In this document: in pieces, positions 2,028-56,084 of the stretch
Position numbering within the stretch: the stretch's first letter is position 1
Layout of the letters: each line of letters begins with the position of its first letter
Assembly: GCA_000004985.1 (NCBI GenBank)
Contig: GG738901.1
Length of the DNA stretch: 64,000 bases
DNA from: Naegleria gruberi
Taxonomy: Eukaryota
Reading direction: 5' to 3' (one strand)
The notes under the pieces: generated by a model
What the model saw: the letters and a program-made list of their open reading frames with translations, nothing else
Databases searched by the model: none
What the model was told of the DNA's origin: nothing
Program-made: the position numbers and the translations under genes

Positions 2028-2633
2028 ATGCATTTAGATTATATGGACGAATGTTTGGATAGTAAGGTGATTGATTCACACTTCTCAAAGTGCCCTGTAG
2101 TGACTTATTTCATAGAGGGTGCCCTAATGATGGAAGATTTAAGCGATCCATTGAAAAGTTCCATGATTGTTATTGAGTACATTGAGAAATTTAGGAAATT
2201 ATTCGAAAGGTTCAATAGAAAAAATTTTGGTTATTCAATTTATAGAAATATCATAACATTGTTTTCAAATTTCACCCGCAGTGGTCTTACAGAAGATTCA
2301 TATGAATGGCAGTAACGTTTTATAATCTTTACTGAACTATTCCAAAACCTGGTTTCAAATAAGATTGACGATTTACCCGAAACTGACCTATCTTTTATTT
2401 TCAGATATACCTCCAATGAAAAGATTATCACCTTCCTATTCGAACAACCACCACTATTCCATCAAATGTTAGCAAGATACATTCCAGATAGAATTAATGA
2501 AAATCTTTTGAAAATTATCGAGAAATATGTTGGCAATAACAATTCATATTATCAGAGGAATCAAATTGCAATATCCAATGATGAGAAAAATCTCAATGCT
2601 AAATCTACTACCACTTCTACTTTAAGATTATAA
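2028..2633 (+). CDS. Hypothetical protein of 170 aa encoded by two exons, join(2028..2311,2405..2633). The intron runs 2312..2404 (93 nt, GTAACG...TTTTCAG).
   Basis: The listed ORF 2028..2315 stops at a TAA that lies inside a GT..AG interval. Removing 2312-2404 keeps the frame open for 77 more codons to the TAA at 2631-2633. The last ~40 nt of this CDS are copied into the duplicated segment at 6611. Confidence 0.55.
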
Positions 2634-3450
2634 GAAACACATTCTCTTCTTAAGAATGTTGTTATAGGGTTGACTGATTAATGTTGTAATTTATACATAA
2701 GTTTGTTGACCATTTCCATTAGTAGGAGGAGTATAATAAGAAGGTTGTGGAGTAACATAGGTTGGTGGTGGTTGATTGACCATCATTGGTTGACCGTATT
2801 GTGGTTGATAAGGTTGTTGAGTCATCATTGGTTGACCATATGGTTGTTGTGGTGGATATGGTTGACCATAAGGTTGTTGTTGAGGTGGATAATAAACACC
2901 AGGTCCTGGATTTTGAATAACAACTGTAGTGACAGGTGGCATTGTTGGTTGAGCAGTGACAAGAGTAGAAGGCATTGTTGCTACTCCAATGGCAGCTGCT
3001 GCTTGTTGTTCTTGAGCTCTTCTCATCATCATAAGTCTTCTCTTTCTGGAAGCAGCACTAACAATAATGATAATTGCAATAAATATTATGAAACCTGGAA
3101 TTCCAAATCCTAAACCATATCCTAAAGCATCATAATCTCCATAACTATTCGAAACACAAACATTGGAAGAACAAGTTTGGGAAGAAGAACAACATGCATA
3201 ACTAGAAGCAATACATGTTGAATAACCAGATTTTCTACAACAAGTTTGTCCAGATAAGCAATAAACATAATTAGTGGAACCTGTTACTGAGCAACAAATA
3301 CTATCTTGAACAGCTGACACTTGGCTTTCATTGAGAGATGAGAAAGAAAGTTCCCCCTTTAATGAATTATCACCATAAGTTGTCAAACGGGCAGAGATTT
3401 TGGCACCTGACACGAGGAGTAATAACACAACTAGTGAGCTGGCAATTTGG
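2593..3450. repeat. Segmental duplication, copy 1. It is ~860 bp and ~97-98% identical to 6611..7470.
   Basis: The two copies align nearly base-for-base, with a few substitutions and one 9-nt indel (accaccact, present in copy 2 only). The span covers the 3' end of the upstream gene, an intergenic spacer and most of a membrane-protein CDS. Confidence 0.85.
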
Positions 3451-3899
3451 ACCCATATTCTAATTTGCTCTTTGATTTGAGTTCTTTTCAAAGTTGGAGC
3501 ACTCTTTTTGATGAAACTAATTACTTTTGGAAGAAGGTTGTTGTTGGTTGGATCTGGCTTTGAAGATGAAGGATGAAGTGCTTCGTTTTGATGAATATCG
3601 CACCTTGCTTGGTGGTGATGAATTACCTTCAACTTTACATTACAAAATTCATTGCATTGACATGAAATATAGTAGTAAAGTTGAGGAGTTCCTACTTCAC
3701 ACTTATTGAATTCCTTTCTTTCTGAGTAAATGTCTTTCAATTCATAAATCATATTGTCCTTCATAACTGCTCGGCATAAAGAAGCTTGCTCAGTCACTTC
3801 ATGAACAGAGTGCACCTTCCATGGACGTTGTAAGTGGTTACAAATTCTATCGAACACATCTTGGTGCTCAATATTTGAGAGTAGTGGAGTATAACTCAT
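2691..3899 (-). CDS. Chimeric copy of the Cys-rich single-pass membrane protein with a P/Q/Y-rich cytoplasmic tail. The duplicated signal peptide, Cys-rich ectodomain, TM segment and tail are fused in frame to ~150 aa of unrelated N-terminal sequence and lack their own Met.
   Basis: The C-terminal ~250 aa are almost identical to ORF 6702..7487. The duplication boundary at ~3445 replaces MKSILVLITSS with IRIWVQIASS, so the ORF can only start at the ATG at 3899. It may be a pseudogene or a new fusion. Confidence 0.5.
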   Translation of the reverse strand: MSYTPLLSNIEHQDVFDRICNHLQRPWKVHSVHEVTEQASLCRAVMKDNMIYELKDIYSERKEFNKCEVGTPQLYYYISCQCNEFCNVKLKVIHHHQARCDIHQNEALHPSSSKPDPTNNNLLPKVISFIKKSAPTLKRTQIKEQIRIWVQIASSLVVLLLLVSGAKISARLTTYGDNSLKGELSFSSLNESQVSAVQDSICCSVTGSTNYVYCLSGQTCCRKSGYSTCIASSYACCSSSQTCSSNVCVSNSYGDYDALGYGLGFGIPGFIIFIAIIIIVSAASRKRRLMMMRRAQEQQAAAAIGVATMPSTLVTAQPTMPPVTTVVIQNPGPGVYYPPQQQPYGQPYPPQQPYGQPMMTQQPYQPQYGQPMMVNQPPPTYVTPQPSYYTPPTNGNGQQTYV

Positions 3900-6610
3900 T
3901 CTATTTTTTTTGCTTGTTGTTGATGAATTGTTCCTTATTGTTGTTTTGTGGTTCTATTGCAAGATATATGTGTTGGTGTGTTGTGTGGTGTTTGTTGTAT
4001 CGTTAAGAATTTTTTTGATTGGTTGAACAATTGGCGCCATGTTTAATTTCCGTGTTTTGCCTTTTAGGAACAATAAAATTTGCTGTTTAAGAACAAAAAA
4101 TTGCAAATTAAGATGGATTTCTAAATTGTTCACAAATATGTACTTTACTGTGCTGGATGTAATGGAAAATAATGCTACTCAAATTAAGATATTAGACTTC
4201 CTTAAAAGTCAAAAAGACTAAGACACAAATTACAGTTTCAAGCGAGGAGCAGGGGTAGAAATCTTACTTTTAATTTAGGGTTCATCAAAAAATTGCGAAA
4301 TAATTGGGGTAAACAACATTATTTATTTATTTATTTCTTCTTTCGTGCTCTACTAGAGTTTCTCTTTACTGCTTCTTCAAATTGTGAATTCTTTGGTCCA
4401 CGTTTTTGTTTCTATAGCGGTTCTTCTTGTTCCAATTCCTTCTCTTGTTAAGGCTATGGAATTATCGTTGCTGAGAAAGTCTTCTTCACTTTTTCTTTGT
4501 TATGATGGGGTGAAGTACAAAATAATTGTATCGTGCTGGTTGTTGTGGATTAATCTTCCTTTCTATTTACAAAAGTGTATAACCAATTACCATCTCTACT
4601 AAGGTAATATATCCTTTAGTAATTTCTTGATGGAAATAGCTCTTGGCATTCATGAAGCGAAGGTAAGGTGTTTTATTGTAGGTGCAGTGGAAACATTTGG
4701 GAGTGCCTGCTTTTGTTTTGGTAGAGGATTTGGTTCCTTGAGGTTTTTTTAAATATTTACAACAAAGAACACAGCAGAAGAGGTTTTCGAAAAGATAAGA
4801 ACAGATTCGTGACAACAACTTACAACAGTTGGATGGAAAACGATGCATTCGGTCAACTCTGGGAGAAAGACTCACTGAATTATCTGAGATTATTGTGTGC
4901 CTCCTTTAGGTCTGATCCCCCAAGCTCTTTTCCATCTAATCGAGAGCGAACGGAACTTTTGAAGTGCTGTAGTGGCCAACTTCTCATTGGTTCTCAATAC
5001 TATTAAGGATTTCCTTAAAAGTGAGAAAGGTTCCAAGAATGCTTAGTGTGGATCCATACACCGAATTGTTCAACAAATTCGAAGTTTATGGAGCTTTCCA
5101 ATGGTTCGTAGTGATTCACAATATTCCAAGATCCAATCCTCATACAATAGAATACTTTGCAACTTACCTTTCAGAAAGGGTATGTTTTAAACAATTTGAA
5201 GCCAGCTCTTCAATCTTTTGTAGACGTTGAAGGTTGGAAACTTAATGTTCCCAATGGTTTTGCTAGACTAAAGAAAGGACTTTCATAAGGGTTACTACAT
5301 TGTTGATAGAAAGAAACTAAAAAATAAATGGAGTTTCAGCTTATGATATTAAGAATTATATTGATTCCGTGGCTTCCCATAATGAATTCACAGAATGTGG
5401 CAGGAGAATTGCAAAAGTATTTTTCATTCCATCAGAGAAAAATTCAATTGCATACAAACTTTGCTAAGCCTTTTAAGCGATTGGAAATCATCACCAGAAT
5501 TGATAAGTATGGTAGAAAAAGAATGCGGAAACCACACCATCGACAGATTTGCAACATCAGAGTAGGCAACGACAATCCAATTCAACTCTTGGTTAGAAAA
5601 CGATGCGGTTCAAGAACTTTGGGAACAAAACTCAATCAATTATTGTGTTCCTCCAATAGGTCTGATACCACAAGCTCTATTTCACTTGATCCCATCAAAG
5701 GATATAGCAACATTCGTAGTTCCTTTTTGGCTAACAGCTTACTGATCTTGCTAAAGATATCTTTTGAACAGAGAAGTGTTCCGCTCCAATGGCTTATAAC
5801 AGAGCATTACAACGAACTGCACAAACTATCAGGCAATCTTTAGTTCATGGCAGTCAAAGTGAATGGAATGCTCTCCTTTCAATGAGATTTCAGGCTTTAT
5901 CTACTGCTCTTGCAGAATCCACAGTCAAAAAGTATTCTTTAACTTATTCAGAATTTTCTTATTTCTGTCTACTCCATTATTTTAAAACATTCAGAAATTA
6001 GAGCCCCACCCTCTTGCAGTTCACAAAAAGCTCTACAGGTTGAATAATTTGAAACCTACGTTAGATTTCTATTCAAATTTGGAAGGATGGATCCGTAAAT
6101 TATTCCAATCAATTCTAGAATTCAAACAAGGTTTGAATAAGTTTTATTCACGAGCTGATATTGACACTTGATACTCCTTTTATCAGTTGGGTTTCTTTTG
6201 ATCTTTCTGGTCACAAAACAGACCAAAATTTGACAGATGAAGAAACTCCTATTGAGGAAATAAGAAATACTGTCCAGTTTATAACCTTAGAAGATACATG
6301 GATTATGCCAGATCGTGAGATGAAAATTTTAAGGATTTGGCAATTATTGAATAAAGACTTGATGTTATTTGAAAAGATTTCAAAGTTGGCTCAATCTTCA
6401 GCTAATTATCAAAAGATTGATGTTTGATTTCTTGTGTTGTTTCAAAATAAAGAACTTTAAAACACAAAAAAGTTGTTTTGAGACAGCTGGTAATTGGGTG
6501 CCTAATTCAAAAGTGAGATTGAGATATCAACGTAGAATTGGCCTTGCTACTCATGGTTTAACTACTTCTATTATGAGAACTGATTAATTGTATATATAAA
6601 TAGAAAAATG

Positions 6611-7470
6611 TCAATGCTGCTACTAGTTCAACTTTAAGATTATAAGAAACCGTTTCTCTTCTTAAGAATGTTGTTATCGGGTTGACTGATTAATGTTTAA
6701 TTTATACATAAGTTTGTTGACCATTTCCATTGGTAGGAGGAGTATAATAAGAAGGTTGTGGAGTAACATAGGTTGGTGGTGGTTGATTGGCCATCATTGG
6801 TTGACCGTATTGTGGTTGATAAGGTTGTTGAGTCATCATTGGTTGACCATATGGTTGTTGTGGTGGATATTGTTGACCATAAGGTTGTTGTTGAGGTGGA
6901 TAATAAACACCAGGTCCAGGATTTTGAATAACAACTGTAGTACCACCACTGACAGGTGGCATTGTTGGTTGAGCAGTGACAAGAGTAGAAGGCATTGTTG
7001 CTACTCCAACGGCAGCTGCTGCTTGTTGTTCTTGAGCTCTTCTCATCATCATAAGTCTTCTCTTTCTAGAAGCAGCACTAACAATAATGATAATTGCAAT
7101 AAATATTATGAAACCTGGAATTCCAAATCCTAAACCATATCCTAAAGCATCATAATCTCCATAACTATTCGAAACGCAAACATTGGAAGAACAAGTTTGT
7201 GAAGAGGAACAACATGCATAACTAGAAGCAATACATGTTGAATAACCAGATTTTCTACAACAAGTTTGTCCAGATAAGCAATAAACATAATTAGTGGAAC
7301 CTGTCACTGAGCAACAAATACTATCTTGAACAGCTGACACTTGGCTTTCATTGAGAGATGAGAAAGAAAGTTCCCCCTTTAATGAATTATCATCATAAGT
7401 TGTCAAACGGGCAGAGATTTTGGCACCTGACACGAGGAGTAATAACACAACTAGTGAGCTGGTAATTAGG
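6611..7470. repeat. Segmental duplication, copy 2, paired with 2593..3450.
   Basis: See copy 1. This copy also contains a 3' fragment of the 2028..2633 gene (6611-6650). Confidence 0.85.
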
Positions 7471-7487
7471 ACGAGAATTGATTTCAT
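6702..7487 (-). CDS. Type I membrane protein (261 aa). It has a signal peptide, a Cys-rich ectodomain, one TM helix (GIPGFIIFIAIIIIVSAA), and a Pro/Gln/Tyr-rich cytoplasmic tail with repeated PPQQ(P/G)Y units.
   Basis: The ORF is intact with the ATG at 7487 (plus-strand cat at 7485-7487). A hydrophobic N-terminal leader is present. Cys spacing follows CC..C..CC..C. The RKRR stop-transfer follows the TM. The tail is low complexity. The N-terminus is complete, unlike the paralogous copy. Confidence 0.75.
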   Translation of the reverse strand: MKSILVLITSSLVVLLLLVSGAKISARLTTYDDNSLKGELSFSSLNESQVSAVQDSICCSVTGSTNYVYCLSGQTCCRKSGYSTCIASSYACCSSSQTCSSNVCVSNSYGDYDALGYGLGFGIPGFIIFIAIIIIVSAASRKRRLMMMRRAQEQQAAAAVGVATMPSTLVTAQPTMPPVSGGTTVVIQNPGPGVYYPPQQQPYGQQYPPQQPYGQPMMTQQPYQPQYGQPMMANQPPPTYVTPQPSYYTPPTNGNGQQTYV

Positions 7488-8323
7488 TTTTTTTAATGGG
7501 GAAAAGTAAGAAGGAATTTATTTTGTTGATATTTACAACATAATGTTGATGAACCTGAGAGCTGCCTTTCAACAACATTCGAATAGCACTATGGTGGAAT
7601 AGAGATAGGAAGGTGAGGTGTCAATGTCAGCAGTATCTTTTGTTTGGTACTTTTTTAGACCCCAAGATTCGTTTAGGCTACGATACTTGCCAAAAATTAT
7701 GTTGTATTACGTTTTCTCAAGCCTGTTTGTGTTTCACAAAAAATAATTAGCGATTAATTTGAAAACTATATTTGTATTGATGTGTTTTGAATTCGTCCAA
7801 AAAGTAGTGAGGTGTTGTGACATTAATTTCTACTTGTTGTTGCATAGAATTGTTTTTCAGTGTAGTTTTACACTCTAACTCTATCGATTCAATCAATTGA
7901 TTGATCTACATACAACAGTGAAAGATTTTGACAATTCCTTACGATTATCTCTAAAATAATTATTGAACCAAAAACTTGTTTTATTGTTCTGGTATTAAAA
8001 ATTGAACAAATGCTCAATACTATTGCTCAATTTCTTAGTCTTTTTTTGAATGTCTTGTGATATTCAGGGTGAGAGGATCTGTGACAGGGCTTTTTTATGA
8101 TGACCAAACACTGTTAAGTTGACAAGCAAACATCTTTAGTAAACTATTTTTAACAGATATTCAGTTCTCAAAACCATAACATTTAAACTTTTTCAATTTT
8201 TACGAATTCAATAAGGAAAACAAATTCGAATAGAATTTCAATTCGTTCTAAAAATCTTTGTCATTAAGTTCACTATTCACATGTCCAGCACCATGAACTT
8301 GATTCCAAAAATCATTAAAAAAA

Positions 8324-9808
8324 ATGCTTAAAATCAGTTCTACTACTGCCTTCACGACTCGCTCACCAACAATCAAACAACAATTGCAAAAACAAATCTT
8401 TTCCGATGATATTTGCTTTGAAATTTTATCATTTCTTGATTTTAAATTTATTCTAACGAATTGTTGTTTAATTTCTCATCAGTGGGAGAATGTCATCAAT
8501 GTACAATCTAATTTATCAGTCATTTTCAATAATCAAAAAGTGACGAATGAATTTATTGATAAATTAATGAAAAATAGTTATTTGAAACGTTTCGTTTCGT
8601 TGAAAACTAGAGAAAGAAGCTTTTTGCATGATCGAGAAAAAGTTTTGAAACTTGTTGGAATGATGCAGAATTTGAAATCACTCTCCATTGTTGGTAATGG
8701 ATTAGTGGATGAACATTTGAAAGAAATTAGTGAAATGAAAGGTTTAACTTTACTCGATGTGAGTGAGAATAAGTTTGGAAAGGAAGGTGCGGAAAAAATT
8801 AGTGGAATGGTTGGATTGACCACATTGAATATTAATGATAATTATATACTTGATGAAGGGGCTAAATTCATTGGAACGATGAAACAATTGACCTTGTTGA
8901 AAATGAAATATTGTGAAATTAGAGAAGAAGGTGCGAGAGCAATAAGTGAATTGAAAAATTTAACATTTCTCAATCTGCATGGTAATTTTATAGGTGATAA
9001 AGGAGCCAGCTATATAAGTGAAATGGTCAATCTGACACATCTCAATGTTGGTAGCACCCAATTGACAGCTGAAGGGGCAAGACATGTTAGTGGACTCAAA
9101 AATCTGAAATCTCTATTGATTCATACCAATCAAATTGGACATCAAGGAGCAAAGTGGATTAGTACAATGAAAGATCTGGAAGGGTTGACTTCACTTGATG
9201 TTAGTGGAAACTCCATTCTTGATCAAGGAGTACAATATTTGAGTGAAATGTCAAATCTGACACATTTAGATATTGGAAGTAATCATGTTGGAGTTAAAGG
9301 AATTGAATCAATTATTGGAATGAAAGGATTAATCTCGCTAAATGTCAGTAGTAATGATTTGGGATCATCAGGAGCAAAGTTAATCAGTGGAATGTCAAAT
9401 TTAACCTCACTAAACATTTCAGCCAATCGACTATTAGGTGAAGGAGCTAAATTTATTGGAGAAATGCATAACGTAACAATATTAGTTATCAGAAACAATG
9501 ATATTGGTGATGAAGGAGCCAAATTCATTTGTAAAATGAAACAATTGAAATCTCTCAATGCTGTGTATAATAGAATATCTTCGAAAGGATTTGAATCAAT
9601 AAGTGAAATGAAACAATTAACATCACTTGATATTGGTTACAACAGTATTGACTCAAAAGGAGCTAAATCTGTTCGCAAATTGAAAAATTTGACTTCTCTC
9701 AATGTCAGAAGTAATATGATAGATGATGAAGGATTGAAAGCTATTGGTCAACTCAAAATTCCTTATCTAACCACTGGATATCAACAAGCAAAACAATCCA
9801 ATAATTAA
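8324..9808 (+). CDS. F-box-like / RNI-type leucine-rich-repeat protein (494 aa).
   Basis: The N-terminal F-box-like motif is FSDDICFEILSFLDFKFILTNCCLISHQWENV. About 14 ribonuclease-inhibitor-type LRRs follow (L.xL.LxxNxIGDEGAKxIS). It is a paralog of the gene at 61038..61916. Confidence 0.85.
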   Translation: MLKISSTTAFTTRSPTIKQQLQKQIFSDDICFEILSFLDFKFILTNCCLISHQWENVINVQSNLSVIFNNQKVTNEFIDKLMKNSYLKRFVSLKTRERSFLHDREKVLKLVGMMQNLKSLSIVGNGLVDEHLKEISEMKGLTLLDVSENKFGKEGAEKISGMVGLTTLNINDNYILDEGAKFIGTMKQLTLLKMKYCEIREEGARAISELKNLTFLNLHGNFIGDKGASYISEMVNLTHLNVGSTQLTAEGARHVSGLKNLKSLLIHTNQIGHQGAKWISTMKDLEGLTSLDVSGNSILDQGVQYLSEMSNLTHLDIGSNHVGVKGIESIIGMKGLISLNVSSNDLGSSGAKLISGMSNLTSLNISANRLLGEGAKFIGEMHNVTILVIRNNDIGDEGAKFICKMKQLKSLNAVYNRISSKGFESISEMKQLTSLDIGYNSIDSKGAKSVRKLKNLTSLNVRSNMIDDEGLKAIGQLKIPYLTTGYQQAKQSNN

Positions 9809-9883: not shown

Positions 9884-9954
9884 AAAAATATTTCTCCCCC
9901 TGGTGGGTTGAATATCGACCTGCAGATTAACAGTCTGACGCTCTACCGACTGAG
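9884..9954 (-). tRNA. tRNA-Asn(GUU)-like gene with an aberrant T arm. It may be a pseudogene or a tRNA-derived element.
   Basis: The minus strand reads TCCCCCT-TA-GCTC-AGTCGGTA-GAGC-G-TCAGA-CTGTTAA-TCTGC..., followed by ...CCACC-AGGGGGA-G. The acceptor stem, D arm and anticodon loop (GTT) are canonical, and a TTCAACC T-loop motif is present. The T stem does not pair cleanly, and there is one anticodon-stem mismatch. A T-rich tract lies downstream. Confidence 0.45.
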
Positions 9955-10514
9955 CTAAGGGGGATACATTCAGCAATAAAAAATATTTATAATATTCGAT
10001 GGAAAAAACTGTTTCTTTCCATTTTTGGAATTAACAGCCAAAGAGGTAAATATAATCAATTCGGTTTATCAATTAATAAAACAAAAAATCTGATTTCCTT
10101 CATTGCATTGTAATCATTGCCCTTCTCAGACCAATCAAAATTTGTCCAACCCATGCACAAACTCCTTGAGTATTACAACTTTCGAATAATATGACTGAAT
10201 TTCTTAGCTCATTCCCAAAATCTCATTCACCTCTTATTCATCAAAAACACATCCACAATCCATACAATAACCAAAACTCACTCATCAATATCTTCAAGTT
10301 CATTCCTTTAATCTTCTATCTGTCTTCCATTATCTAAAACCAATTACACCTTCTAATTTTCATCATCTATGTAACCCAACAAGAAGTAAACTAATCACCT
10401 TGGGTAATCAAATTGCTGGGGGAACCTGTCAAATTCTGAGTCAACTAAACTTCATTTGAACCTTTTAGAGGTTGCAGTAAATCGGTTTTTCATTGCAATT
10501 CGAAACAAAAAAAA

Positions 10515-11119
10515 ATGAGAGAAAGTGGCGTAGTAAGTATTTGCATCTTGTGAAAACAATCTCACAAACTGTCTTTCTCATTACCCAAATGGTTTCTAAT
10601 ATACTTTCGAATAATAACAATATCGTTTTGTGATGATCATTATTAATAGGCTTATCTTCTTTGGTTAGGTTGTTGTATTGGATTCTTCGGTTTGCACCGT
10701 TTCTATTTGGACTCTGTCATTTTGGGTGTCATCTGGTTCTGTACTGCTGGTTTGTTCGGCTTTGGTCAATTGATTGATCTTAGTAAGTAATCTTATTTCT
10801 AATATATGATGATTTAACCATTATCTATTACTCACACTAACACACATTCCAACTTTCTCTGTTACGAAAATCAACTTTCGAATAACAATTTAATTCTAAA
10901 GTCCTCATCCCAGGTATGGTCGATGAATGTAACCGTAAATATGGTACTCCACAAGTTACCACTGCTGTTACCAACGTAACAACTTATCAAACTCAACCAC
11001 AAGTCCAACAACCATACGTCCCACCACAACAAGCATATTATCCACCACAACAAGGTTATGTTCCTCCACAACAAGGATATGCTCAACAACCTGCTGTTAA
11101 TGTTTATGTTCAACAATAA
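10515..11119 (+). CDS. TM2-domain protein with a Gln/Pro/Tyr-rich C-terminal tail (118 aa). Predicted three exons, join(10515..10532,10650..10782,10914..11119).
   Basis: Exon 1 is ATGAGAGAAAGTGGCGTA, followed by a GTAAGT donor. Intron 1 is 117 nt and ends ...TTAATAG. Exon 2 encodes [44 protein letters not shown], which carries the TM2-domain signature (W..G..GxHRFYLG) across two hydrophobic helices. Intron 2 is 131 nt (GTAAGT...TCCCAG). Exon 3 is the PQY-rich ORF 10916..11119, which on its own lacks any upstream context. Confidence 0.55.
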
Positions 11120-12656: not shown

Positions 12657-14180
12657 ATGCTTTCAAACAACCTTCCCTCCACAGATGTCTCCACTCAATC
12701 AGTAGCAGCAGCAACAACAACTCTTCCGAATGGTTATTCTCGGGAGTGGCCAATCATCGTTGAAAATTTACAGAAAATTGCAAATAGAGAAAAAGTGTTT
12801 GGATCGATTGCAGCTTGGATTGAATTTGTAAAGGATTTGGATCAGAAAATTGTTGATGATTGTATGAATAATAATCGTGATGATGACGATGATGGTAGTG
12901 TTCAAGAAGTTTCCAGATCAACTGATTATCACTTTAGAAATTTATCATTCCTTTATAAAAAGATGAATATTTCGGACAAGAAGGAAGCAAAAGAACATTC
13001 ATTGATGAGTGAGAAGGAATTTATGGAAAAGGTTGTTCCAAAGATTGCTCAGTGGATTTTGGATTTGGAAAGAGAGTTTCCAAGTGGAAAAATTCCAGTC
13101 TTGATGATGAATGCATCTGGTGTTGTGAGATTGACCAAGAGACAGATCAGGTCGATTATGAGTTGTGCATTTTGTTGTTTATTCAGAGAAAGAGGAGATG
13201 TATCAAAGAAAAATATGGGTGTTTTCGAGTTTGGATTATTCTGGAGTGTTGCTTCACAAAATTTCCTAATGTCATTATTTCACTATTTTGAGAGGATGTA
13301 TAAATTAGACAATGATAGCTCAACAAGCAGTTCTTTGGATGAAATAATTTTATTTGAAAGGAAGGTTTTAAAGAACAATTATAGGCGATTCATAGAAGAG
13401 GAAATTTGCAAGAGTCAACAAAAGATGTGCCCTTTATTATTCAAACAAGGAAAGATTCAAGATAATCTTAATCACTTGATGGTTGATTTTGCAAATTGTA
13501 TGATTGGTGGACATGTGCTCGGTGGTGCAGTTGCACAAGAAGAGATTTTATTTGTTGAATGTCCAGAGCTTTTTGCATCCATTTTAATTTGCCCTCAAAT
13601 GCAAGTTCATGAAACTATTAAGTTCACAGGATTTGAGAGATATTCAAATTTGAAAGGATACATTAAGAGTATGACTTATGAGACCTATCTAGACAATCAA
13701 CCAGTAATCGAGAACGTAAGAAAGAATCAACTAATTGCTATGGATGCTCTGCAAGGAGTGGGAATTTTCCAATTCCAAAAAGAATTCATTCTTAGAGAAA
13801 TATTCAAAACCACCTGTGCTTTCACATCAAAAGAGAATGATTTCCTCAAAGATTCATCATCTGATTTACCAACATTAGAAAACGAACCTATTGCAAGTGG
13901 ATTCTGGGGCTGTGGAATGTTTGGAGGTGATAAGCAATTGAAAACAATCATTCAATGGTTGAGTGCTACTTTATGTAATAGACCTTCTCTAACTATTCAT
14001 CTCTTTTCACCTGAGGATGAGAAAATTGAACAAGATTTCAACACAAAAATACTTCCATTAATTGTGGAGAAGGAGTTAAGTCTTGGTCAAGTTGCAGATG
14101 CATTACTCAACACTTACCAATCAGTTAGAAAAACAACATCTTTTTCAATTTTTGAATTTCTTCATCAAAACTTCAAATAA
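12657..14180 (+). CDS. PARG: Poly(ADP-ribose) glycohydrolase (PARG), 507 aa.
   Basis: The PARG catalytic signature is present as VDFANCMIGGHVLGGAVAQEEILFVECPEL. This matches the Gly-rich loop followed by QEE. A conserved ...GFERYSNLKGY... block follows. Confidence 0.85.
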   Translation: MLSNNLPSTDVSTQSVAAATTTLPNGYSREWPIIVENLQKIANREKVFGSIAAWIEFVKDLDQKIVDDCMNNNRDDDDDGSVQEVSRSTDYHFRNLSFLYKKMNISDKKEAKEHSLMSEKEFMEKVVPKIAQWILDLEREFPSGKIPVLMMNASGVVRLTKRQIRSIMSCAFCCLFRERGDVSKKNMGVFEFGLFWSVASQNFLMSLFHYFERMYKLDNDSSTSSSLDEIILFERKVLKNNYRRFIEEEICKSQQKMCPLLFKQGKIQDNLNHLMVDFANCMIGGHVLGGAVAQEEILFVECPELFASILICPQMQVHETIKFTGFERYSNLKGYIKSMTYETYLDNQPVIENVRKNQLIAMDALQGVGIFQFQKEFILREIFKTTCAFTSKENDFLKDSSSDLPTLENEPIASGFWGCGMFGGDKQLKTIIQWLSATLCNRPSLTIHLFSPEDEKIEQDFNTKILPLIVEKELSLGQVADALLNTYQSVRKTTSFSIFEFLHQNFK

Positions 14181-14329
14181 AATCCAGAACTTGACTAATT
14201 TCAAATAGTAATCCTGTCAACTAAATCAATAAAACTAATTTACCAAATGGTATTAACAAAACCAAAGCACTTTAAAAAAGAAAACAAGTGCAGAATGTTT
14301 CTTGATATTAAAACACAAAATTACAACCG

Positions 14330-14402
14330 CCCCACGTGGGGCTCGAACCCACGACCGTTGGATTAAAAGTCCAACGCTCTACCGACTGAGCTAGCAGGGC
14401 TG
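14330..14402 (-). tRNA. tRNA-Lys(UUU).
   Basis: The minus strand reads GCCCTGC-TA-GCTC-AGTCGGTA-GAGC-G-TTGGA-CTTTTAA-TCCAA-CGGTC-GTGGG-TTCGAGC-CCCAC-GTGGGGC-G. All four stems pair, with two G-U pairs in the acceptor stem. The anticodon is TTT. No CCA is encoded. A T-rich stretch lies downstream. Confidence 0.9.
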
Positions 14403-33239: not shown

Positions 33240-36200
33240 ATGAAGGACGAAGAGATGGTGGAGAATAATCAATCTACTGTTAATGAAGATGGAATCAAGA
33301 CATCATCTGAAGCTAAACCAACACAATTTAACCACTCCTCACATCATCAAAGGCCTCATCATATTAACAAGGGTCTCGGAGAAGAACAACAATACAAATT
33401 TCCTTCATCTATTACACCACTTTCACTGGCCAATATTCATGCCAATGCATCGACTAACTTACTGCTAACTTCATCAACATTATTTAATTCTTCAAGTGAA
33501 TCACATGGTGGTGGAACCATTTCGAGAAGCTCCTCCAATACTTCAATGGATAGCTCCTCCTATTCACTCTTGAATAATCACCATCATCTAACCACATCTT
33601 CCTCACCCTCTGATGGTTTTCACTCAACTCTAAAATCCCTAGAAAATGTTCTCCCTCCATTCTTTACTCCATGCGTGCCACCTCATGCATCATTCAATTA
33701 CTATTCAGAACATTATTGGGGAGAACATCCCTTATCACTAACCTCCTTCTCTCCAATTCTTCATTATGAAAAGAAGTCATCTCTAACGATTATTTGTCGA
33801 TACACACCACAACAAACTAGGAATTCTCCAAGAAGGGAGAGACCTTCCTCTCAAAAAGAATTAATAGAGAATGAGATTTATTGTCTGAAAGTTTCACTGG
33901 ACAAACCATCCATTCCAAAGCTGGAAAGGGATGCAGAAATTTCTCGATTCTTGACCAATGAATTTTCTCAAGTGTTGGATCCAGCACAACAGGTTATTGT
34001 CAGTACTAAGGCCTATTTGTCTGATTATTTTATTCTCGTGAGGGAGTTTATTGATTGTGTTTCGTTGAGATCATTTATTGATAGATCGAAAACATATGCT
34101 AGAGCAGAACCAATTACTGATGAGAATTTTGAAACCTTAACAGATGATACTGTAACACTTCTCAATGAAGAACAACGAGTGAAAGAAAACATTACAATAT
34201 TGGAAAGTAATTTAACACTTGCTATTTCTATTTGTATGAGTGTTGCTCAACTGCATCACTCAAGAGTTTGTCATGCTGACATTAGGCCAGAAAATATAAT
34301 TGTAGAAGGACCTAAATGCAATATAAGATTGATTGATTTTGGAAAGAGTACATTCCTCCCTTTGGAGCATCCATTTTTATATACCGATAAAATTATTGGT
34401 AGTCAAATGTATTGTGCTCCAGAGGCAACAGGAAAGATTCCAAAACCAATAGGTTTCCACACTGATATATATTCACTTGGATTTGTTCTCTTTGAGTTAT
34501 TTTCCAAAGAACATCCATTTACCAAGTTTAGGACATTAGATTTCGTATTTCAACATTTGACTCAACAGCCAGAGTCCTTGTTTCAAAATCTAGCGAGAAG
34601 GTCTTTTATATCAGCCAATGAAGGAAACCTATTCACAGCTGCTACTAAAGCAATTTCAAGACTAATTACCAAAGCAATTCAAAAATCTATTGAGAAACGT
34701 TATTTGAGTATTTTTGGATTGAAACGAGATTTGGTCTACATACAGAATGCTATTCAACTAGAAGATATGGAAGCTCTTGAAAATTTTCAAGCTGGTATGA
34801 ATGATGTTCAAACAACTTTATCCATACCTTATGGTGTATATGGTAGAGAGGAAATTTTCAAAAAATTGGAACTGAAACTTGAAAATATGATGGAATCTAG
34901 TGAGCCAACGATTGTCCTTCTGGGGGGCTATAGTGGCATAGGTAAATCATGTATTGTTAAGGAGTTTAGGACAAGAAGTAAAACAGCAATACAATTCTTT
35001 GAGGCAAAATACGATCAACATATGAATGTACCTTACTATGCCATTATTTCCATATGTAAACAAATTATTGGCGACGTTCTTGGAGAATCTGAATCAGTGA
35101 TTAAGGATTTCAGATTCCAACTTGGTACACTTATCAATTCAGATCAATTAGAAATGTTGAGTGATGCAATTCCTGACATGTCATATTTATTTACAACTAA
35201 TGCAACCAAAAAGCATACCTCCCCATCAATGGGAGATCAGAATGGAGAGCGTATGAAGCTCTTTTCACAAGGAAGTAAGTAATATTTTGAATTTAACATT
35301 ATAACAATATTATATTGCTCAGTTATTCATCTCTTTAGTGTTTATACTCATTTAAAGAAAAAGAGGTTATGCATTTTCTTGGATGACTTGCAATGGACTG
35401 ATTTTGATAGCATGAAGCTATTGAAGGAAATTCTTGGAACTGGTTCTTGTGATACTGTTCCTCTTTTAATTATTGGAGCATATAGAAATAACGAAGTGGG
35501 AAAGGACCATCCTCTATTTTACTTTTTAGAAAATCTCAAACTTAAAGTGAACATTGAAGAAATTGAAGTTGTTGAGTTGACAGAAGATCAATCTAACATG
35601 ATTGTCTCAGAGTCTTTAAGGAAAAATAGAGCTGAAACAGAAGAACTAACCAAAATACTCTTCTCTAGGACGAATGGAAACCCCTTCTTTTTAAAGCAGT
35701 TATTGGCTGGTTTATTTAAGGACGGATCTATTTATTTCGATACTCAAACAGATACTATTACATGGGATAAAAAGAAAATAGAAAATGCAGAATACTCTGA
35801 AAATGTTATTGACTATCTCCTTGGACATTTGGAAAAATTACCAAAACAAACACAAGATATTCTTGCATTTGCTTCTTGCTTTGGAAATAAGTTTTCCAAT
35901 GAAGACATGCTCCACCTACTCAATCAGCAACAAGAAGAAAAGATAGACTTGATGCAACTTAAAGAAAGATTGAACTATGCGGTGAAGGAGGGATGGATTT
36001 CAAATATCAATTCTGGTAATTTACGATTTAATCATGATAGACTCCAACAAGCTGCTTATGAATCACTGCCTTTGAATGAAAGGTTGAGAATTCACTATAC
36101 CTATGGTAAGCAGCTTCTCAAAAAAGCAGAAGAAGATGATTCTTTGGAGGAACGTTTATTTGATATAGTTGTACAGTTAAATCACAAACATAATGATCCT

Positions 36201-42039: not shown

Positions 42040-42137
42040 AGTGTTGAGTAAATAAAAACTGATGAAACATTTAGACATCACCAAATATAATGTCGTTTTT
42101 TCCCGTAAATGAGAAATATTTGCATTAAGAACAAGAT

Positions 42138-42209
42138 TCCCGTGTAGTCCAATGGCTAGGATACCTGGCTTTCACCCAGGAGGTCCGGGTTCAATTCCCG
42201 GCATGGGAG
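42138..42209 (+). tRNA. tRNA-Glu(UUC).
   Basis: TCCCGTG-TA-GTCC-AATGGCTA-GGAT-A-CCTGG-CTTTCAC-CCAGG-AGGT-CCGGG-TTCAATT-CCCGG-CATGGGA-G forms a cloverleaf with all stems paired. The anticodon is TTC. A T6 run follows immediately (gaatcgttttttattttt). Confidence 0.9.
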
Positions 42210-42271
42210 AATCGTTTTTTATTTTTAAAAGTAATCTACAATGAAGTATTGTATTTTTTAAGCTTGATTCT

Positions 42272-43740: not shown

Positions 43741-46563
43741 TTAAAGGTCATCATCTGATTCAACCTCTTCGACTCCCTCCACTATTGGTTCTTCTTCTTC
43801 TACAATCATAGGGCCACTTTGATTGTCAACTCTGGCTTTGGTGAATTTGTAGAGTTTGTCCAAGAGTGAACGACCTTGATCCCACCAAGAAATATCAACC
43901 TCATGATAGGTGCCACGAAGTGGATTGATAACTCCAATATTCTTAATTTCCATTCCATCCAATCTAGCCATGGCTGCATAGCAGAGTAATTGAATAATCC
44001 ACTCAACTTCAATATCTTGGGATACCGAACATTTAATATCAATAATGGTCTCGCCATCAATGATGATATCTGCCTCTCCAGTAACATGTTTTCCATAACT
44101 GAGACTTCTATGGGTATTAACTGAGCTTTCAGTTTTTTCTACAATAAATGGAACAAAGTGCTCTTGTAAATTATTGAACAGTTCTGTATAGTTTGGAGCA
44201 ATGTCCTTAATAAAGTCAAACTTTTTCTTTAGATTGGTATTGCCAAGATAGAGCATTCTGGTTCTTCCCTCTTTAACAACTGCATCAAGTTTGGAAATTT
44301 CGAATACACTTTCTAGAATATCAATTGACTCATAATTTGGATTTGTAAAAATTCTGTAAGCTGTTTTTAAACTGTCTACATAACCGGGTGGGAAGGCATA
44401 TTCTGTCATTACTGGAATAACCTCGAATGAAAATTGTCCCTTCTCCAATATTTTCTCGAAAGATTCAATAATCTCAGTCATGACTATCTTTTCATAGCCA
44501 TCAGTAATAGATTTTAACAAAGCTTTTGGAGGTTTTCCATTTCTCATCAACTGCTTCAATTTCTTTGCATATCTATTAAAGACCTGGATACTGCCTGTAT
44601 TTAATACGATTGCCTCGTTAATGAAGAGTTCAGTGCATGTATGACTAAAACCTCCTCCATTAGGTATTTTCTCAGAAATCATTCTACAAAATAAAGTATC
44701 AATAAAGTTTCCAAAGTCTGTAAACATTTGATTTTCGTAAACCACGTCACAGTATGCAAAGTCTGTATCCACAATTTTGGTTTTCGTAAATTCGATTTGT
44801 GGCAAACATCCTTCTTCCTTGAGTATTGTCATGAGTTCTCCATCAATATTACGAACCATATTTGTTACGGTGTATGGATTAATAGATGAGTCGGATGCTG
44901 ATCTTGGCTGTTCTGAAATACGCAAGTCTGTGGGACTATGTAATCTGAATACGCTACGATCAATCTCTGTTATATAACTCAAACAAGTTGCTGTCTTGGG
45001 GAGAACAATGTGTAACTCATCCTTTGCTCTGGTAACAGCCACATATAATACACGTCTTAGTTCCGCATCATTATCACCTTTCCATTTATCATTTGATGAA
45101 TCCACCAAGAAAACAATATCCCACTCCAAACCTTTAGACTTGTGTATGGTTGATAGGCAAACTTTTCCAGTTGTTGTGTGTCTTTCCATTTCCTTTAAAG
45201 ATTTTGATTTTTCCATAATAGTAATATGTGGAATGAAGAATTTAGATAATTGTTCCTCTACCTTATAGAGACCATAATTTGTTGGAGAAAGGATTGCTAT
45301 TCTTTCTCTTGGCACTCCACGTTTCAAATATTCTGATATTTTCTTAGCAACATACAAACCCTGGTTATCATTTACAATGATTGGTTTAAGATTAGATTCT
45401 CTTGTGGTTGTCATTTCTTTTGGAATATTATCTGGATTATTTCTCAAAATTGCATTTGCCACTTGCAAAATTTCTGGCGTACTTCTATAATTTCTAGTCA
45501 GTGTTAACAGCTTAGAGTTTGGATATTTTGAGTGAAAATTCAAAATATGTTCCACACTGGATCCTCTCCATGAGTAAATGTTTTGCGAATCATCTCCTAC
45601 GGCAATTATCTTGCATCCTCTTTTGTGAAACTCTTCAAAAATCTCTGCTTGAAAATTATCAATATCTTGATACTCATCAATTATGAGATACTTTTTCTTT
45701 TTACAAATTTCATCCGCAATTTCTGGATAATTCTTCATTAAGTTCCTCAATCTATATCCATATTCAATCACACAAGCTTGAGAATCAAAATATTGCCAAT
45801 ATTTCTTCAATGTCTTGTAAGCAAATGCATCAATGGTTCCAATAGTAAATTTACTCTTAACTCCAATACTGGCAAGCTTTTCCTTCATATCATTTGCTGC
45901 CAATCTTGAAAATGTTGTCAACATGATCTGATGAGCTGGAATTTTCAAATACTTTATCATGTAAACAATTTTACAAATAATGGTTGTTGTCTTTCCACTT
46001 CCAGCGCAAGCCAACACTAACAAGTCATCATTCACATCTCCAAAAACAACTTGCTTTTGTTCTTCACTCAAATCAATCTGTACATCATCAATTGTAAATG
46101 TTTTCATAATTTCCTCTTCGGATGGAAAAACAATTTCCTTCTTCTTCCTTACTCTTTTTACAGGCTTTGAAATTTCCTCATCACCTCCAAAATTAATTTC
46201 CGGCATTAAACTAATTGCCTCATTACTCATAGCATTAATGATTTCTTCCTTTTCTTGAGGTTGGTGAGTAGAAAATAATTCCTTCACCTCATCATCTTGT
46301 TGCTTCAAAGTCTGTTTCCTTCTCGTAGCATTATTAATCAAAGATTGAGAAAAACATCTCCTCATCATTACATGATTCAATAAAGTAGAGTTATTGGTTT
46401 TCAACAAGGCTGATGAAGATCCTGTCGGGAATGATTTATTTCCACCATTAATTTTAATATGATTAATTATATTATTGTTATTACTATTTAAATGATGTAA
46501 AGTTGAAGTGGATGATAATGTATTCAAGCGATAGAGAAGTGAATTGTGCTTGATGTTGCGCAT
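43741..46563 (-). CDS. UvrD/PcrA/Rep-family SF1 DNA helicase fused to a C-terminal RecB-family PD-(D/E)xK nuclease-like domain (940 aa). The N-terminal extension resembles an organellar presequence.
   Basis: The helicase motifs are I (LVLACAGSGKTTT), Ia (TFSRLAANDMKEKL), II (LIIDEYQDID), III (GDDSQNIYSWRG), IV (NYRSTPEIL), V (LSTIHKSKGLEWDIVFL) and VI (VLYVAVTRAKDEL). The C-terminal ~250 aa carry a D...D-I-K nuclease-like triad (GEADIIIDGETIIDIKCS) followed by QLLCYAAMA, which is the RecB QxxxY motif. The N-terminal 90 aa are rich in R/S/T/N and have no acidic residues. Confidence 0.85.
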   Translation of the reverse strand: MRNIKHNSLLYRLNTLSSTSTLHHLNSNNNNIINHIKINGGNKSFPTGSSSALLKTNNSTLLNHVMMRRCFSQSLINNATRRKQTLKQQDDEVKELFSTHQPQEKEEIINAMSNEAISLMPEINFGGDEEISKPVKRVRKKKEIVFPSEEEIMKTFTIDDVQIDLSEEQKQVVFGDVNDDLLVLACAGSGKTTTIICKIVYMIKYLKIPAHQIMLTTFSRLAANDMKEKLASIGVKSKFTIGTIDAFAYKTLKKYWQYFDSQACVIEYGYRLRNLMKNYPEIADEICKKKKYLIIDEYQDIDNFQAEIFEEFHKRGCKIIAVGDDSQNIYSWRGSSVEHILNFHSKYPNSKLLTLTRNYRSTPEILQVANAILRNNPDNIPKEMTTTRESNLKPIIVNDNQGLYVAKKISEYLKRGVPRERIAILSPTNYGLYKVEEQLSKFFIPHITIMEKSKSLKEMERHTTTGKVCLSTIHKSKGLEWDIVFLVDSSNDKWKGDNDAELRRVLYVAVTRAKDELHIVLPKTATCLSYITEIDRSVFRLHSPTDLRISEQPRSASDSSINPYTVTNMVRNIDGELMTILKEEGCLPQIEFTKTKIVDTDFAYCDVVYENQMFTDFGNFIDTLFCRMISEKIPNGGGFSHTCTELFINEAIVLNTGSIQVFNRYAKKLKQLMRNGKPPKALLKSITDGYEKIVMTEIIESFEKILEKGQFSFEVIPVMTEYAFPPGYVDSLKTAYRIFTNPNYESIDILESVFEISKLDAVVKEGRTRMLYLGNTNLKKKFDFIKDIAPNYTELFNNLQEHFVPFIVEKTESSVNTHRSLSYGKHVTGEADIIIDGETIIDIKCSVSQDIEVEWIIQLLCYAAMARLDGMEIKNIGVINPLRGTYHEVDISWWDQGRSLLDKLYKFTKARVDNQSGPMIVEEEEPIVEGVEEVESDDDL

Positions 46564-53723: not shown

Positions 53724-56084
53724 ATGCTTGGAAAGAGAAGCAACAACTCTTCAACGTGCTGTGCCAGCAAGAAAACCAAATATGATTCTTGCTGTTCATC
53801 TTCATCCTGTTACTCTCCGTTTAATGTAGAATGGGATGGAGTGGAACGTTCCGAATTAGCCAACGTTTTACATCAAATTGGCTCCAATCCTCATCAATAT
53901 TCGTATGGCAAAAGAAATAGTGAAAAGGAAGGCTTGTTAGGCTTTCCTGGGTTGAAAATTCATTTCGATCATGATGTTTCCATCAATGTTGGATTGCCTC
54001 TCTGTTCGGAACAACTTGAATCCATACGGAATAATTTAAATTCTAATTTGCAATTAATATCGTCAAATTCTTCATCATCAACTTTATCGGAGAAGATGAT
54101 TTGTTTGAATGATGAAGATTTATTCTCCATTGAAAATCCCTATTGGATGGAACAATTAGAGGAAATACTGAAGGACGTTCTTTCACAATTACAAGTTGAA
54201 AATCACATATCTGGATTGATTAGAAAGAATTCACTCATCATTGCTAGTGAAGGGTGTTCGGATATTCCCATTACGAGTACACGAGAGAATTGTTTTGTCA
54301 AGTTGGTTGTGAGATTGCCTTCTAATTGTGAGGGTGGTCATGTAGTAGTTAATTCGGGAAAGATTTCTTACAACTTCTCTAAGGGGTCGTGCTATTCCAG
54401 TACTTTGACTGCTTGCTATTCTAACATTGATGCCACTATCAAGGGAATCACCAAAGGTTGTGCAATGTATTTGGTGTTTGATATTTGTCATCAGGATGGA
54501 TGTGAAACACCAACATTTATTAATTCTAAAGAGCTATTTAGCAAATTTATGGACAATTGGGAGAAATCACCCTACTTTGTAATAGAGTACAAGCAGAATT
54601 CTGATTATTATAAATCAATAACAAGCATATTGAATTGGTACGTACATGAAATGCCAATAGGAAGTTTAGAATTTGAATTTGGAACGCTGAATAATGATGT
54701 ATTGTACTTTCGTAGAATCAATGCAGATTTAGACATTAATTCGCAATCACTCCTCTTCTCTAAAGGAGATCGAGAAAATATTGAATGTATTATTATCATT
54801 TCAAAACATTTCACTACTGAAGTATATTTACATTTGGGCATGGAGATTGCTCTTGATTATTTGAAGAGAGTTTTCAATGGTGCCACTTCTCAACATATTA
54901 TTAACTTTTTAAAGAAAATAATTGACAAGTATTCCAAACAATTGGATGGAAAGAAGATTGTAGATTATATAATAGAATTGAACGATTTGGAGCTAGCAAA
55001 GTTACTGTTGAGAGAAATATTATGCCATAATTTCAATCATGAGGTTCTTTTCAAATTAGTACAAGCTTTCACACTCAAAGAATTGCGTACAGAAGTAATC
55101 AAGGTGTTATCAGTTTGTTTCATCGATCATTTGGATGGATGTGTGGATGTATTGGAGGCTCTTAATTGTCCTACAGTTTCTGCTTCAGTTTTACCTCAAT
55201 GTAGTCTGAGTGAACAAACATGTACATGCTCTCAGTTGGAAAAGGTTTTGGATTTGGCTTCAAAATTTGATATTGTCATTCAACAAATACCTGAAAACAT
55301 TAGCAAGCTATCAGGAAACCCAGATGATATGTACAGATTATCTAAAAAGATCAAAAATAAGAGTTGTATTAAGGAAACGTTACAAAGATCTTGGAAATCT
55401 AAAACACTCAATCCTAAAATGATTGTTGAATGTGTGGGTACTATAGGATTGACTGAATCTAGGGATTTAATGAGGGACGGAGTTGATTCATTCTGCTCAA
55501 GTCATAAAAATGTGGAAATCCTAGAAACTATTGGATCATTCTCGGAAATTCTCAACTCATCAAACGATGCTTCCTGCAATCTTGTAATGTCAATGCTAGC
55601 AAGAAACCTTATCAGCCGTACGAATTTTACAATTAGGTTTGTTCATCACCTAGTTATTCCATTCCTCAAACAATTGACCAATAAGGAAGCTCTATCTAAA
55701 AGTGCTACTCAATCAATTGCAAAACACTGCTTAAAACTTTACAATAACCAAAACAAGGTTGCTATCGAACACCTGCAACCTCTCAATAGCAAGATTTCCC
55801 ATATTATTCTATCATGTTCATGTGAAACGTGTGCTCCAGTTCAGGAATTTATAGAGTCGAATGAGAGAATTTACACTATCCCATTTGCTACAAAGGTTAA
55901 TGTTGACCATTTGGTCGAGAAAGTTTCGGGCTTCTACTCTGACATTCTCCTCAGCCAATCTTCAAATGGAAATGCAATAATTGAAAAAGTACTCCTCAAG
56001 CAAACCAAAATTGAAATCAAGGAGAACATTGCATTCTTAAACTCCTTACACGATTTGACTCTCCTTGAAGATGATGTAGAGTAG
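53724..56084 (+). CDS. Hypothetical protein (786 aa) with a Cys/Ser-rich N-terminus. Family not recognised.
   Basis: ATG at 53724. The 2.36-kb ORF is uninterrupted. Only short antisense ORFs fall inside it. Confidence 0.6.
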   Translation: MLGKRSNNSSTCCASKKTKYDSCCSSSSCYSPFNVEWDGVERSELANVLHQIGSNPHQYSYGKRNSEKEGLLGFPGLKIHFDHDVSINVGLPLCSEQLESIRNNLNSNLQLISSNSSSSTLSEKMICLNDEDLFSIENPYWMEQLEEILKDVLSQLQVENHISGLIRKNSLIIASEGCSDIPITSTRENCFVKLVVRLPSNCEGGHVVVNSGKISYNFSKGSCYSSTLTACYSNIDATIKGITKGCAMYLVFDICHQDGCETPTFINSKELFSKFMDNWEKSPYFVIEYKQNSDYYKSITSILNWYVHEMPIGSLEFEFGTLNNDVLYFRRINADLDINSQSLLFSKGDRENIECIIIISKHFTTEVYLHLGMEIALDYLKRVFNGATSQHIINFLKKIIDKYSKQLDGKKIVDYIIELNDLELAKLLLREILCHNFNHEVLFKLVQAFTLKELRTEVIKVLSVCFIDHLDGCVDVLEALNCPTVSASVLPQCSLSEQTCTCSQLEKVLDLASKFDIVIQQIPENISKLSGNPDDMYRLSKKIKNKSCIKETLQRSWKSKTLNPKMIVECVGTIGLTESRDLMRDGVDSFCSSHKNVEILETIGSFSEILNSSNDASCNLVMSMLARNLISRTNFTIRFVHHLVIPFLKQLTNKEALSKSATQSIAKHCLKLYNNQNKVAIEHLQPLNSKISHIILSCSCETCAPVQEFIESNERIYTIPFATKVNVDHLVEKVSGFYSDILLSQSSNGNAIIEKVLLKQTKIEIKENIAFLNSLHDLTLLEDDVE

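Follow-up and report, generated by a model that had tools for sequence, protein, structure and literature searches.

The subject of this analysis is a stretch of 64,000 nucleotides (the window) of contig GG738901.1 from the Naegleria gruberi assembly GCA_000004985.1. It contains a direct duplication of about 0.87 kb, through which a gene for a Cys-rich, predicted type I membrane protein is present twice. The right-hand copy carries the gene intact. In the left-hand copy, the gene has lost its start and is fused in frame to 146 foreign codons which, judged from their homologues, encode the N-terminus of a transposase-family protein of the Mutator-like (MULE) type. The DNA between the two copies is termed filler here. 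A contig assembled from another sample has the same region with one copy and no filler. The locus probably originated by a one-step duplication with capture of the filler, and the resulting chimeric open reading frame (ORF) is rather unlikely to be a selected, functional gene.

Limits and content of the duplicated segments

The following features define the duplication (positions refer to the window).

2584..3452, no strand: duplicate copy 1, 869 nt; comprises a convergent-gene tail, a spacer of 57 nt and the Cys-rich gene without the first 5 codons (BLASTN)
6602..7472, no strand: duplicate copy 2, 871 nt (repeat finding, pairwise alignment and BLASTN)
3453..6601, no strand: filler between the copies, 3,149 bp; missing from the single-copy arrangement described below
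2584..2633, + strand: true 3' end of the upstream convergent gene (15 codons and stop), inside copy 1; the gene spans about 915-2633 and its stop codon is 2631-2633
6604..6645, + strand: orphan copy of the convergent-gene tail (13 codons and stop), with a stop codon made by the junction immediately before it

The local direct duplication is confirmed in the assembled sequence. BLASTN gave 95.7% identity over 878 alignment columns including gaps, and repeat finding and pairwise alignment agreed that the segments are direct repeats. Identity is distributed unevenly: it is approximately 98% in the stretch 2687-3229 and 87% in the 91 nt at the left end. Three indels distinguish the copies: 9 nt were deleted in frame from copy 1 at about 2931, by which the residues SGG were lost; 6 nt were gained in frame by copy 1 at about 2600-2605, within the tail of the upstream gene; and 1 nt is inserted at 2686 in the spacer. 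A preliminary description of this DNA had placed the segments at 2593-3450 and 6611-7470, with 97-98% identity and a single 9-nt indel. The duplication itself stands, and the limits, the identity (with gaps counted) and the number of indels are replaced by the values given here.

The content of each copy agrees with that description. Each consists of the last 13-15 codons and the stop codon of the convergent + strand gene, the 57-nt spacer and, on the - strand, the Cys-rich gene, complete or nearly so. The copies lie about 4 kb apart. No runs of N were found in the window, and the assembly is gap-free across the locus.

The chimeric ORF and its intact parent

The genes concerned are located as follows.

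2691..3899, - strand: chimeric ORF, 402 aa; 402 of 402 residues identical to XP_002672021.1 / EFC39277.1 / D2VVA6 (NAEGRDRAFT_52539) of N. gruberi NEG-M
3453..3899, - strand: foreign 5' part of the chimera; start codon and 146 codons, plus 3 bp of the one that follows; homologous to MULE transposase-family N-termini
2691..3452, - strand: membrane-protein-derived part of the chimera; former signal-peptide core with SGA motif (about residues 147-166 of the chimera), 10-Cys ectodomain, transmembrane segment and P/Q-rich tail with PPTY
6702..7487, - strand: intact gene for the Cys-rich, predicted type I membrane protein, 261 aa; start codon and upstream region of its own (ORF list, hydropathy)

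By codon-level alignment, the fusion junction is 3452/3453. Five codons (MKSIL) are lost, and the 146 foreign codons are followed by V(Q/L)IASSLVV and the remainder of the membrane protein. An in-frame fusion with loss of the start codon had been proposed before, with a breakpoint at about 3445 and 150 foreign codons; the fusion and the lost start hold, and the junction and the codon count are revised accordingly.

The copy-2 gene is intact, as had been described: its 261-aa product starts with a Met of its own and is predicted from hydropathy to have a hydrophobic signal at the N-terminus and a single transmembrane segment. The hydropathy peaks span residues 1-26 and 114-143, and an SGA motif is present. 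By the same measure, the chimera has two hydrophobic segments. The first, at residues 145-170, is the former signal-peptide core, with the SGA motif kept and basic residues ahead of it; the second, at residues 258-287, is the original transmembrane segment. Both the topology and the expression of the chimera are inferred. In the predicted topology, the N- and C-termini lie in the cytosol and the 10-Cys domain in the lumen or outside the cell, and the former signal-peptide core would act as an internal signal-anchor behind a cytosolic, transposase-derived N-terminal domain. Signal peptidase may still cut after SGA, which would yield a membrane-anchored N-terminal fragment and a mature protein nearly identical to that of the parent.

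The exact 261-aa product is absent from a collection of about 15 billion proteins, and the cluster formed at 90% identity contains only the chimera and one protein from another sample (P0001, see below). The intact gene 6702-7487 is probably unannotated in the reference. Since the chimera is the NCBI/UniProt entry and the collection lacks the parental product, it seems that the fused gene was modelled in the reference annotation and its parent was missed.

Pfam scans of the chimera, the intact copy and the adjacent ORFs gave nothing useful, and no exact match to the chimera was obtained in the gene-position index. No relatives were found in metagenome contigs of the Joint Genome Institute (JGI), either with the membrane protein or with the N-terminal alignment. 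A homologue search with the full 402-aa chimera returned P0001 only, probably because P/Q-rich words crowded the candidates, and the N-terminal part was searched separately. A short ORF at 10916-11119 (+) encodes a P/Q/Y-rich stretch like the cytoplasmic tail of the duplicated membrane protein and gives inverted matches of 30 nt with both copies; proteins with such tails may form a family to which it belongs as well.

Homology of the foreign 5' part

When the N-terminal part was compared with 1.8 billion representative proteins in a full HMMER scan, two relatives were obtained. One (P0004) has 73% identity (E 4e-43). The other (P0005) has 27% identity over residues 7-137 (E 1.2e-7), and pairwise BLASTP gave 1e-15 over residues 7-144. 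The ORF which follows P0005 on its contig (L002) matches the SWIM zinc finger with an E-value of 5.8e-4, above the Pfam cut-off, and also the MULE transposase domain (E 3e-3, profile positions 3-99 of 99). A cluster-mate of P0005, P0006, continues from the N-terminal region straight into the MULE core. The Mutator-like identity of the foreign part follows from these two observations, namely the SWIM/MULE ORF downstream of P0005 and the read-through of P0006. A C-x-C-x3-C...HHH motif is conserved in the foreign part. By homology, it is the N-terminal region of a MULE transposase-family protein, cut before the catalytic core; the gene fragment ends at codon 146. With tblastn, neither a catalytic MULE (DDE) domain nor a SWIM zinc finger was found in the window, whereas the relative on L002 has both.

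The closest homologue of the foreign part lies on a contig (L003) of the ENA metagenome ERZ4903137. The ratio of non-synonymous to synonymous substitution rates (dN/dS) against this homologue is 0.11. As homologues exist and the ratio is this low, the foreign part is regarded as genuine coding sequence. At about position 560 of L003, aligned to about 3620 of the window, an 8-nt deletion shifts the frame and the homology resumes in another frame; this copy is probably a pseudogene or an assembly error.

An AlphaFold model of the N-terminal 150 residues, calculated from a 4-sequence alignment, had a predicted local distance difference test value (pLDDT) of 33, which is too low for use. A further candidate relative, residues 468-634 of a 786-aa ORF at 53724-56084 (+), matched P0005 with 23% identity, many gaps and a pairwise E-value of 5e-6. 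This ORF has no Pfam match, and the similarity was rejected as probably spurious.

Retroelement remnants in the filler

The filler has no similarity elsewhere in the window, neither at the DNA nor at the protein level. At or near 3453 and 6601, no terminal inverted repeats and no short target duplication (including one of 9-11 bp) were found. The region 3900-6600 had been described as gene-poor with diverged short repeats, which agrees with the data: no annotated protein lies in the stretch between the copies, and the repeats 4823-4941 and 5583-5691 are 72-81% identical. From homology, these repeats are parts of two degenerate DIRS-like retroelement fragments.

4746..5319, + strand: DIRS-like remnant, unit a; Dam-like methyltransferase and N-terminal part of a tyrosine recombinase (tblastn with peptides of contig L004)
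5405..6159, + strand: DIRS-like remnant, unit b; RNase H end, Dam-like methyltransferase and N-terminal part of a tyrosine recombinase (tblastn with peptides of contig L004)

A peptide reconstructed from the window matched protein P0007 (60% identity, E 1.2e-34; Pfam Dam, PF05869). The contig of this protein, L004, encodes an RNase H end (...YIPSKENSIADRLSR), then a Dam-like methyltransferase and then the apparent start of a tyrosine recombinase; for the second L004 peptide, the recombinase was called by reading its motifs, and Pfam gave no match on that peptide. When used in tblastn, the L004 peptides matched unit a with E-values of 2e-22 and 5e-11 and unit b with 2e-39 and 7e-12. The units are in tandem, and each is split over three frames. 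Unit a runs through frames 3/1/2/3/1, with at least three frameshifts as well as stop codons, and unit b is frameshifted and has an in-frame stop. The Pfam Dam profile reached an E-value of 2.8e-6 with the relative and only 0.029 with the frame of the window (six-frame scan, X replacing stops). The short reconstructed peptides had no Pfam match. No reverse transcriptase was matched in six-frame Pfam scans (+ strand) and no terminal repeats were found, so the units are remnants only. A 32-nt similarity between 3475-3506 and 6367-6398 (75%) was dismissed as chance because each of the two sequences is itself a near-palindrome.

DIRS1-like elements have the domain order RNase H, methyltransferase, tyrosine recombinase (PMC3266345). 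In the survey by Piednoel et al. (2011, PMC3266345), seven DIRS1-like copies were reported for N. gruberi; their frameshifts and indels were too numerous for a phylogenetic analysis. Both units in the filler share with them the order of methyltransferase and tyrosine recombinase and the heavy frameshifting. The units of the filler are partial, with no reverse transcriptase or terminal repeats found.

Single-copy arrangement in another sample

P0001 is the sole homologue of the membrane protein. It is encoded on L001, a 1,526-bp contig from sequencing run ERR1078381 which matches the window at 7703-6602 and 3452-2373. On this contig, the left flank of copy 1 (2373-2583) leads into a single copy, which is followed directly by the right flank of copy 2 (7473-7703); the filler is missing. 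Such a single-copy arrangement in a different sample supports the duplication independently, and L001 looks like the ancestral layout.

At variable coding sites, L001 agrees with copy 1 six times and with copy 2 six times. These sites are interleaved, with at least nine alternations, and L001 has private changes, too. Therefore, neither simple recombination between the copies nor a plain consensus of them accounts for L001. Synonymous divergence (dS) is 0.042 between copy 1 and copy 2 and 0.055 between either copy and L001. These values are in keeping with a duplication that took place no earlier than the split from the L001 lineage. The preliminary description had called the duplication recent. 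This can be upheld in a relative sense only, because the synonymous divergence between the copies (about 0.04) is similar to the distance to the other strain.

No paper was found for run ERR1078381. L001 ends (positions 1511-1526) in AGATCGGAAGAGCGTC, which we take to be the start of an Illumina adapter; the last bases of this contig would then not be genomic. Approximately 415 bp upstream of the intact copy (7704-8118) are missing from L001. The match resumes at 8119-8283 with about 93% identity besides a 30-nt indel. The ends of 7704-8118 carry the similar short words AACTTA and AACGTA, and this sequence could be a small insertion in strain NEG-M or a deletion in the other strain.

Origin of the locus

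Compared with the single-copy state, the locus has exactly two new junctions, 3452/3453 and 6601/6602. Both ends of the filler cut through transposon sequence, and 3452/3453 lies within transposase-family coding sequence. The proposed ancestral layout would be the convergent-gene tail, the spacer, the 261-aa membrane-protein gene and its promoter. One accident of repair or replication would have duplicated 0.87 kb and, in the same event, placed 3.15 kb of old transposon debris between the copies by capture or copying. Candidate routes are unequal end-joining between sister chromatids or template switching by fork stalling and template switching (FoSTeS) or microhomology-mediated break-induced replication (MMBIR). 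The sequence GGAC at 3449-3452 is a possible microhomology, the donor sequence of which was not found. The right-hand copy would have kept promoter and start codon and stayed a normal gene. The left-hand copy would have lost five codons and been joined in frame to 146 codons, and presumably to the promoter, of a truncated Mutator-like gene at the edge of the filler. As the DIRS-like units are only 72-81% identical and full of frameshifts and stops, whereas the copies differ by approximately 2-4%, the filler is interpreted as passive DNA that was already dead on arrival and did not transpose in. We consider a one-step duplication of this kind the probable origin of the locus, with both the mechanism and the role of the promoter being inferred.

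Several points weigh against this reading. The two-copy structure is read from the assembly. L001 is one short contig from a de Bruijn graph and possibly a path through a collapsed repeat. Nevertheless, the single-copy reading is favored, because a contig of this type would usually be interrupted by a near-identical second copy and the protein collection contains no other related protein from run ERR1078381. Furthermore, the three lineages are separated by nearly the same distances (about 9-12 events each), and the timing of the duplication relative to the strain split is weak for this reason. Finally, no annotated N. gruberi paralogue of the 146 codons was found, and neither was the donor locus of the filler, which was compared within the window.

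Alternatively, the locus could have arisen in several steps: a larger tandem duplication first, followed by transposon insertions at the junction and by deletions which trimmed copies and elements. Identical end structures would be expected, transposon sequence is in fact present at the junction, and the internal tandem repeat of units a and b is evidence for past rearrangement in the filler. However, the DIRS-like units (72-81%, many frameshifts) are far more decayed than the copies (about 98%), so that they cannot have inserted as live elements after the duplication, and at least four events are needed instead of one. This course of events is unlikely. That an older duplication had comprised the entire upstream gene as well as the membrane-protein gene was ruled out, as the filler has no similarity elsewhere in the window.

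Two further explanations are both quite improbable. According to the first, the locus is an assembly artefact, in which two alleles or haplotypes of one locus were set in tandem or a chimeric join was made within the filler. The difference of about 2-4% between the copies could be allelic, N. gruberi NEG-M has been reported as heterozygous, and the deposited annotation models one copy only. On the other hand, the sequence is continuous without runs of N. Moreover, the flanks on the inner side are different and non-homologous; for this reason, the copies cannot be simple alleles, and two separate structural variants plus a mis-join would be necessary. According to the second, the duplication is older and the single copy of L001 results from secondary loss by recombination between the copies. 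Looping out between direct repeats yields exactly the flanks of L001, and the near equidistance of the three sequences is compatible with it. A recombinant should, however, switch once from copy-2-like to copy-1-like, whereas L001 alternates at least nine times in the coding region, and dS between the copies (0.042) is smaller than dS to L001 (0.055).

MULEs acquire host gene fragments, and a Mutator-like gene fragment lies exactly at the fusion junction, but an origin driven by the transposon itself (Pack-MULE-like transduplication or alternative transposition by a Mutator-like element) is very improbable: terminal inverted repeats and a 9-11-bp target duplication were not found, the junction interrupts transposase-family coding sequence instead of coinciding with an element end, host DNA adjoins the duplicated piece without a break on the outer side, and no catalytic MULE or SWIM sequence was found in the window.

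Constraint on the fusion and its possible function

Between copy 1 and copy 2, 7 synonymous and 3 non-synonymous changes were counted over 243 alignable codons, which gives a dN/dS of 0.13. About 23% of the sites are synonymous, and a proportion of 7 synonymous changes in 10 departs from neutrality (binomial estimate, p ~0.002). For the choice between a newborn gene and a pseudogene, this ratio and the in-frame coding indels lean toward constraint, on the basis of only 10 substitutions. Copy 1 alone, when polarised by L001, has 3 synonymous and 2-3 non-synonymous changes in addition to the in-frame 9-nt deletion, which is no significant departure from neutrality (binomial estimate, p ~0.09); the third possible non-synonymous change is an L-to-Q replacement next to the junction. 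That the fusion is a selected, functional gene appears rather unlikely.

Slightly favored is the explanation that the chimeric ORF is a silent or neutrally evolving by-product of the duplication and that its gene model reflects ORF length only. The ORF is young, and for the changes found in copy 1 only, no significant deviation from neutral evolution was obtained. The deposited product name of NAEGRDRAFT_52539 is 'predicted protein', and no mention in the literature was found for it or its gene identifiers. The homologue of the foreign part on L003 is already frameshifted in another organism. In addition, transposon-derived DNA in N. gruberi tends to carry methylation and to be silent (PMC12344493). 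Conversely, all 402 codons are still open, the start codon is kept, the 9-nt deletion is in frame, and dN/dS between the copies is 0.13, with 7 of 10 changes synonymous.

An expressed and selected new gene is conceivable in two versions, though it is unlikely in either. In the first, the former signal peptide would hold a presumed DNA-binding domain derived from the transposase at the membrane. In the second, the transposon promoter would provide a differently regulated second supply of the same mature membrane protein after cleavage at the internal signal. If either were true, the locus would represent a very young transposase-host fusion beside its intact parent in a free-living amoeba.

Apart from function, the birth of a gene in a deep-branching eukaryote can be followed here in good resolution, since the parent gene, its chimeric daughter, the transposon debris that was captured and, for comparison, an arrangement with one copy are all available. 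It also calls for a correction of the annotation: NAEGRDRAFT_52539 is a chimera, and the intact parent at 6702-7487 appears to be without a model.

Neighboring features

The ORF 8324-9808 (+) encodes a protein with an F-box and LRR_6 (RNI-type) repeats, of which the 24-residue units correspond to a family of DNA repeats with 72-nt periodicity. Its exact product is absent from the protein collection. A tRNA at 9895-9964 (-) was detected with Rfam (38.3 bits; gathering score 29) and missed by ARAGORN, which reported only tRNA-Lys at 14328-14400 and tRNA-Glu at 42137-42210. A PARG gene at 12657-14180 corresponds to XP_002671948.1 on the same 309,005-bp scaffold. A protein kinase fused to an AAA_16/STAND NTPase is encoded at 33240-35282 and a UvrD-like helicase at 43741-46563. 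These last three neighbors are ordinary eukaryotic genes.

Comparison with known systems

The locus is a clear but ordinary case of chimeric gene origin and requires no new kind of biology. Its architecture corresponds to that of tandem duplications with an insert at the junction, as produced by FoSTeS/MMBIR or by end-joining with filler: direct copies, two new junctions, unrelated DNA between them and a possible microhomology of at most a few bases. In the present case, the filler, for which no donor was found, may have been either copied from a template or captured as a fragment. Pack-MULEs likewise place Mutator-like sequence side by side with a duplicated host gene fragment and form chimeric ORFs. 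Here, however, terminal inverted repeats, a target-site duplication and a mobile unit are all lacking, and the host fragment is still contiguous with its original neighbor.

The fusion of a transposase-derived N-terminal, presumably DNA-binding region to a host protein resembles the reuse of such regions in SETMAR, FAR1/FHY3 and MUSTANG. It differs from these in that the partner is a membrane protein of the secretory pathway; moreover, the fusion is known from this strain only, and any domestication would be hypothetical. Drosophila jingwei and Sdic are similar in another respect, as a duplicated gene copy without its own start acquired a new 5' coding region and a putative promoter, with the parent gene left intact alongside. 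The N. gruberi chimera, the expression and function of which are putative, differs from them in that its 5' part is the truncated N-terminus of a transposase-family protein brought in with the filler.

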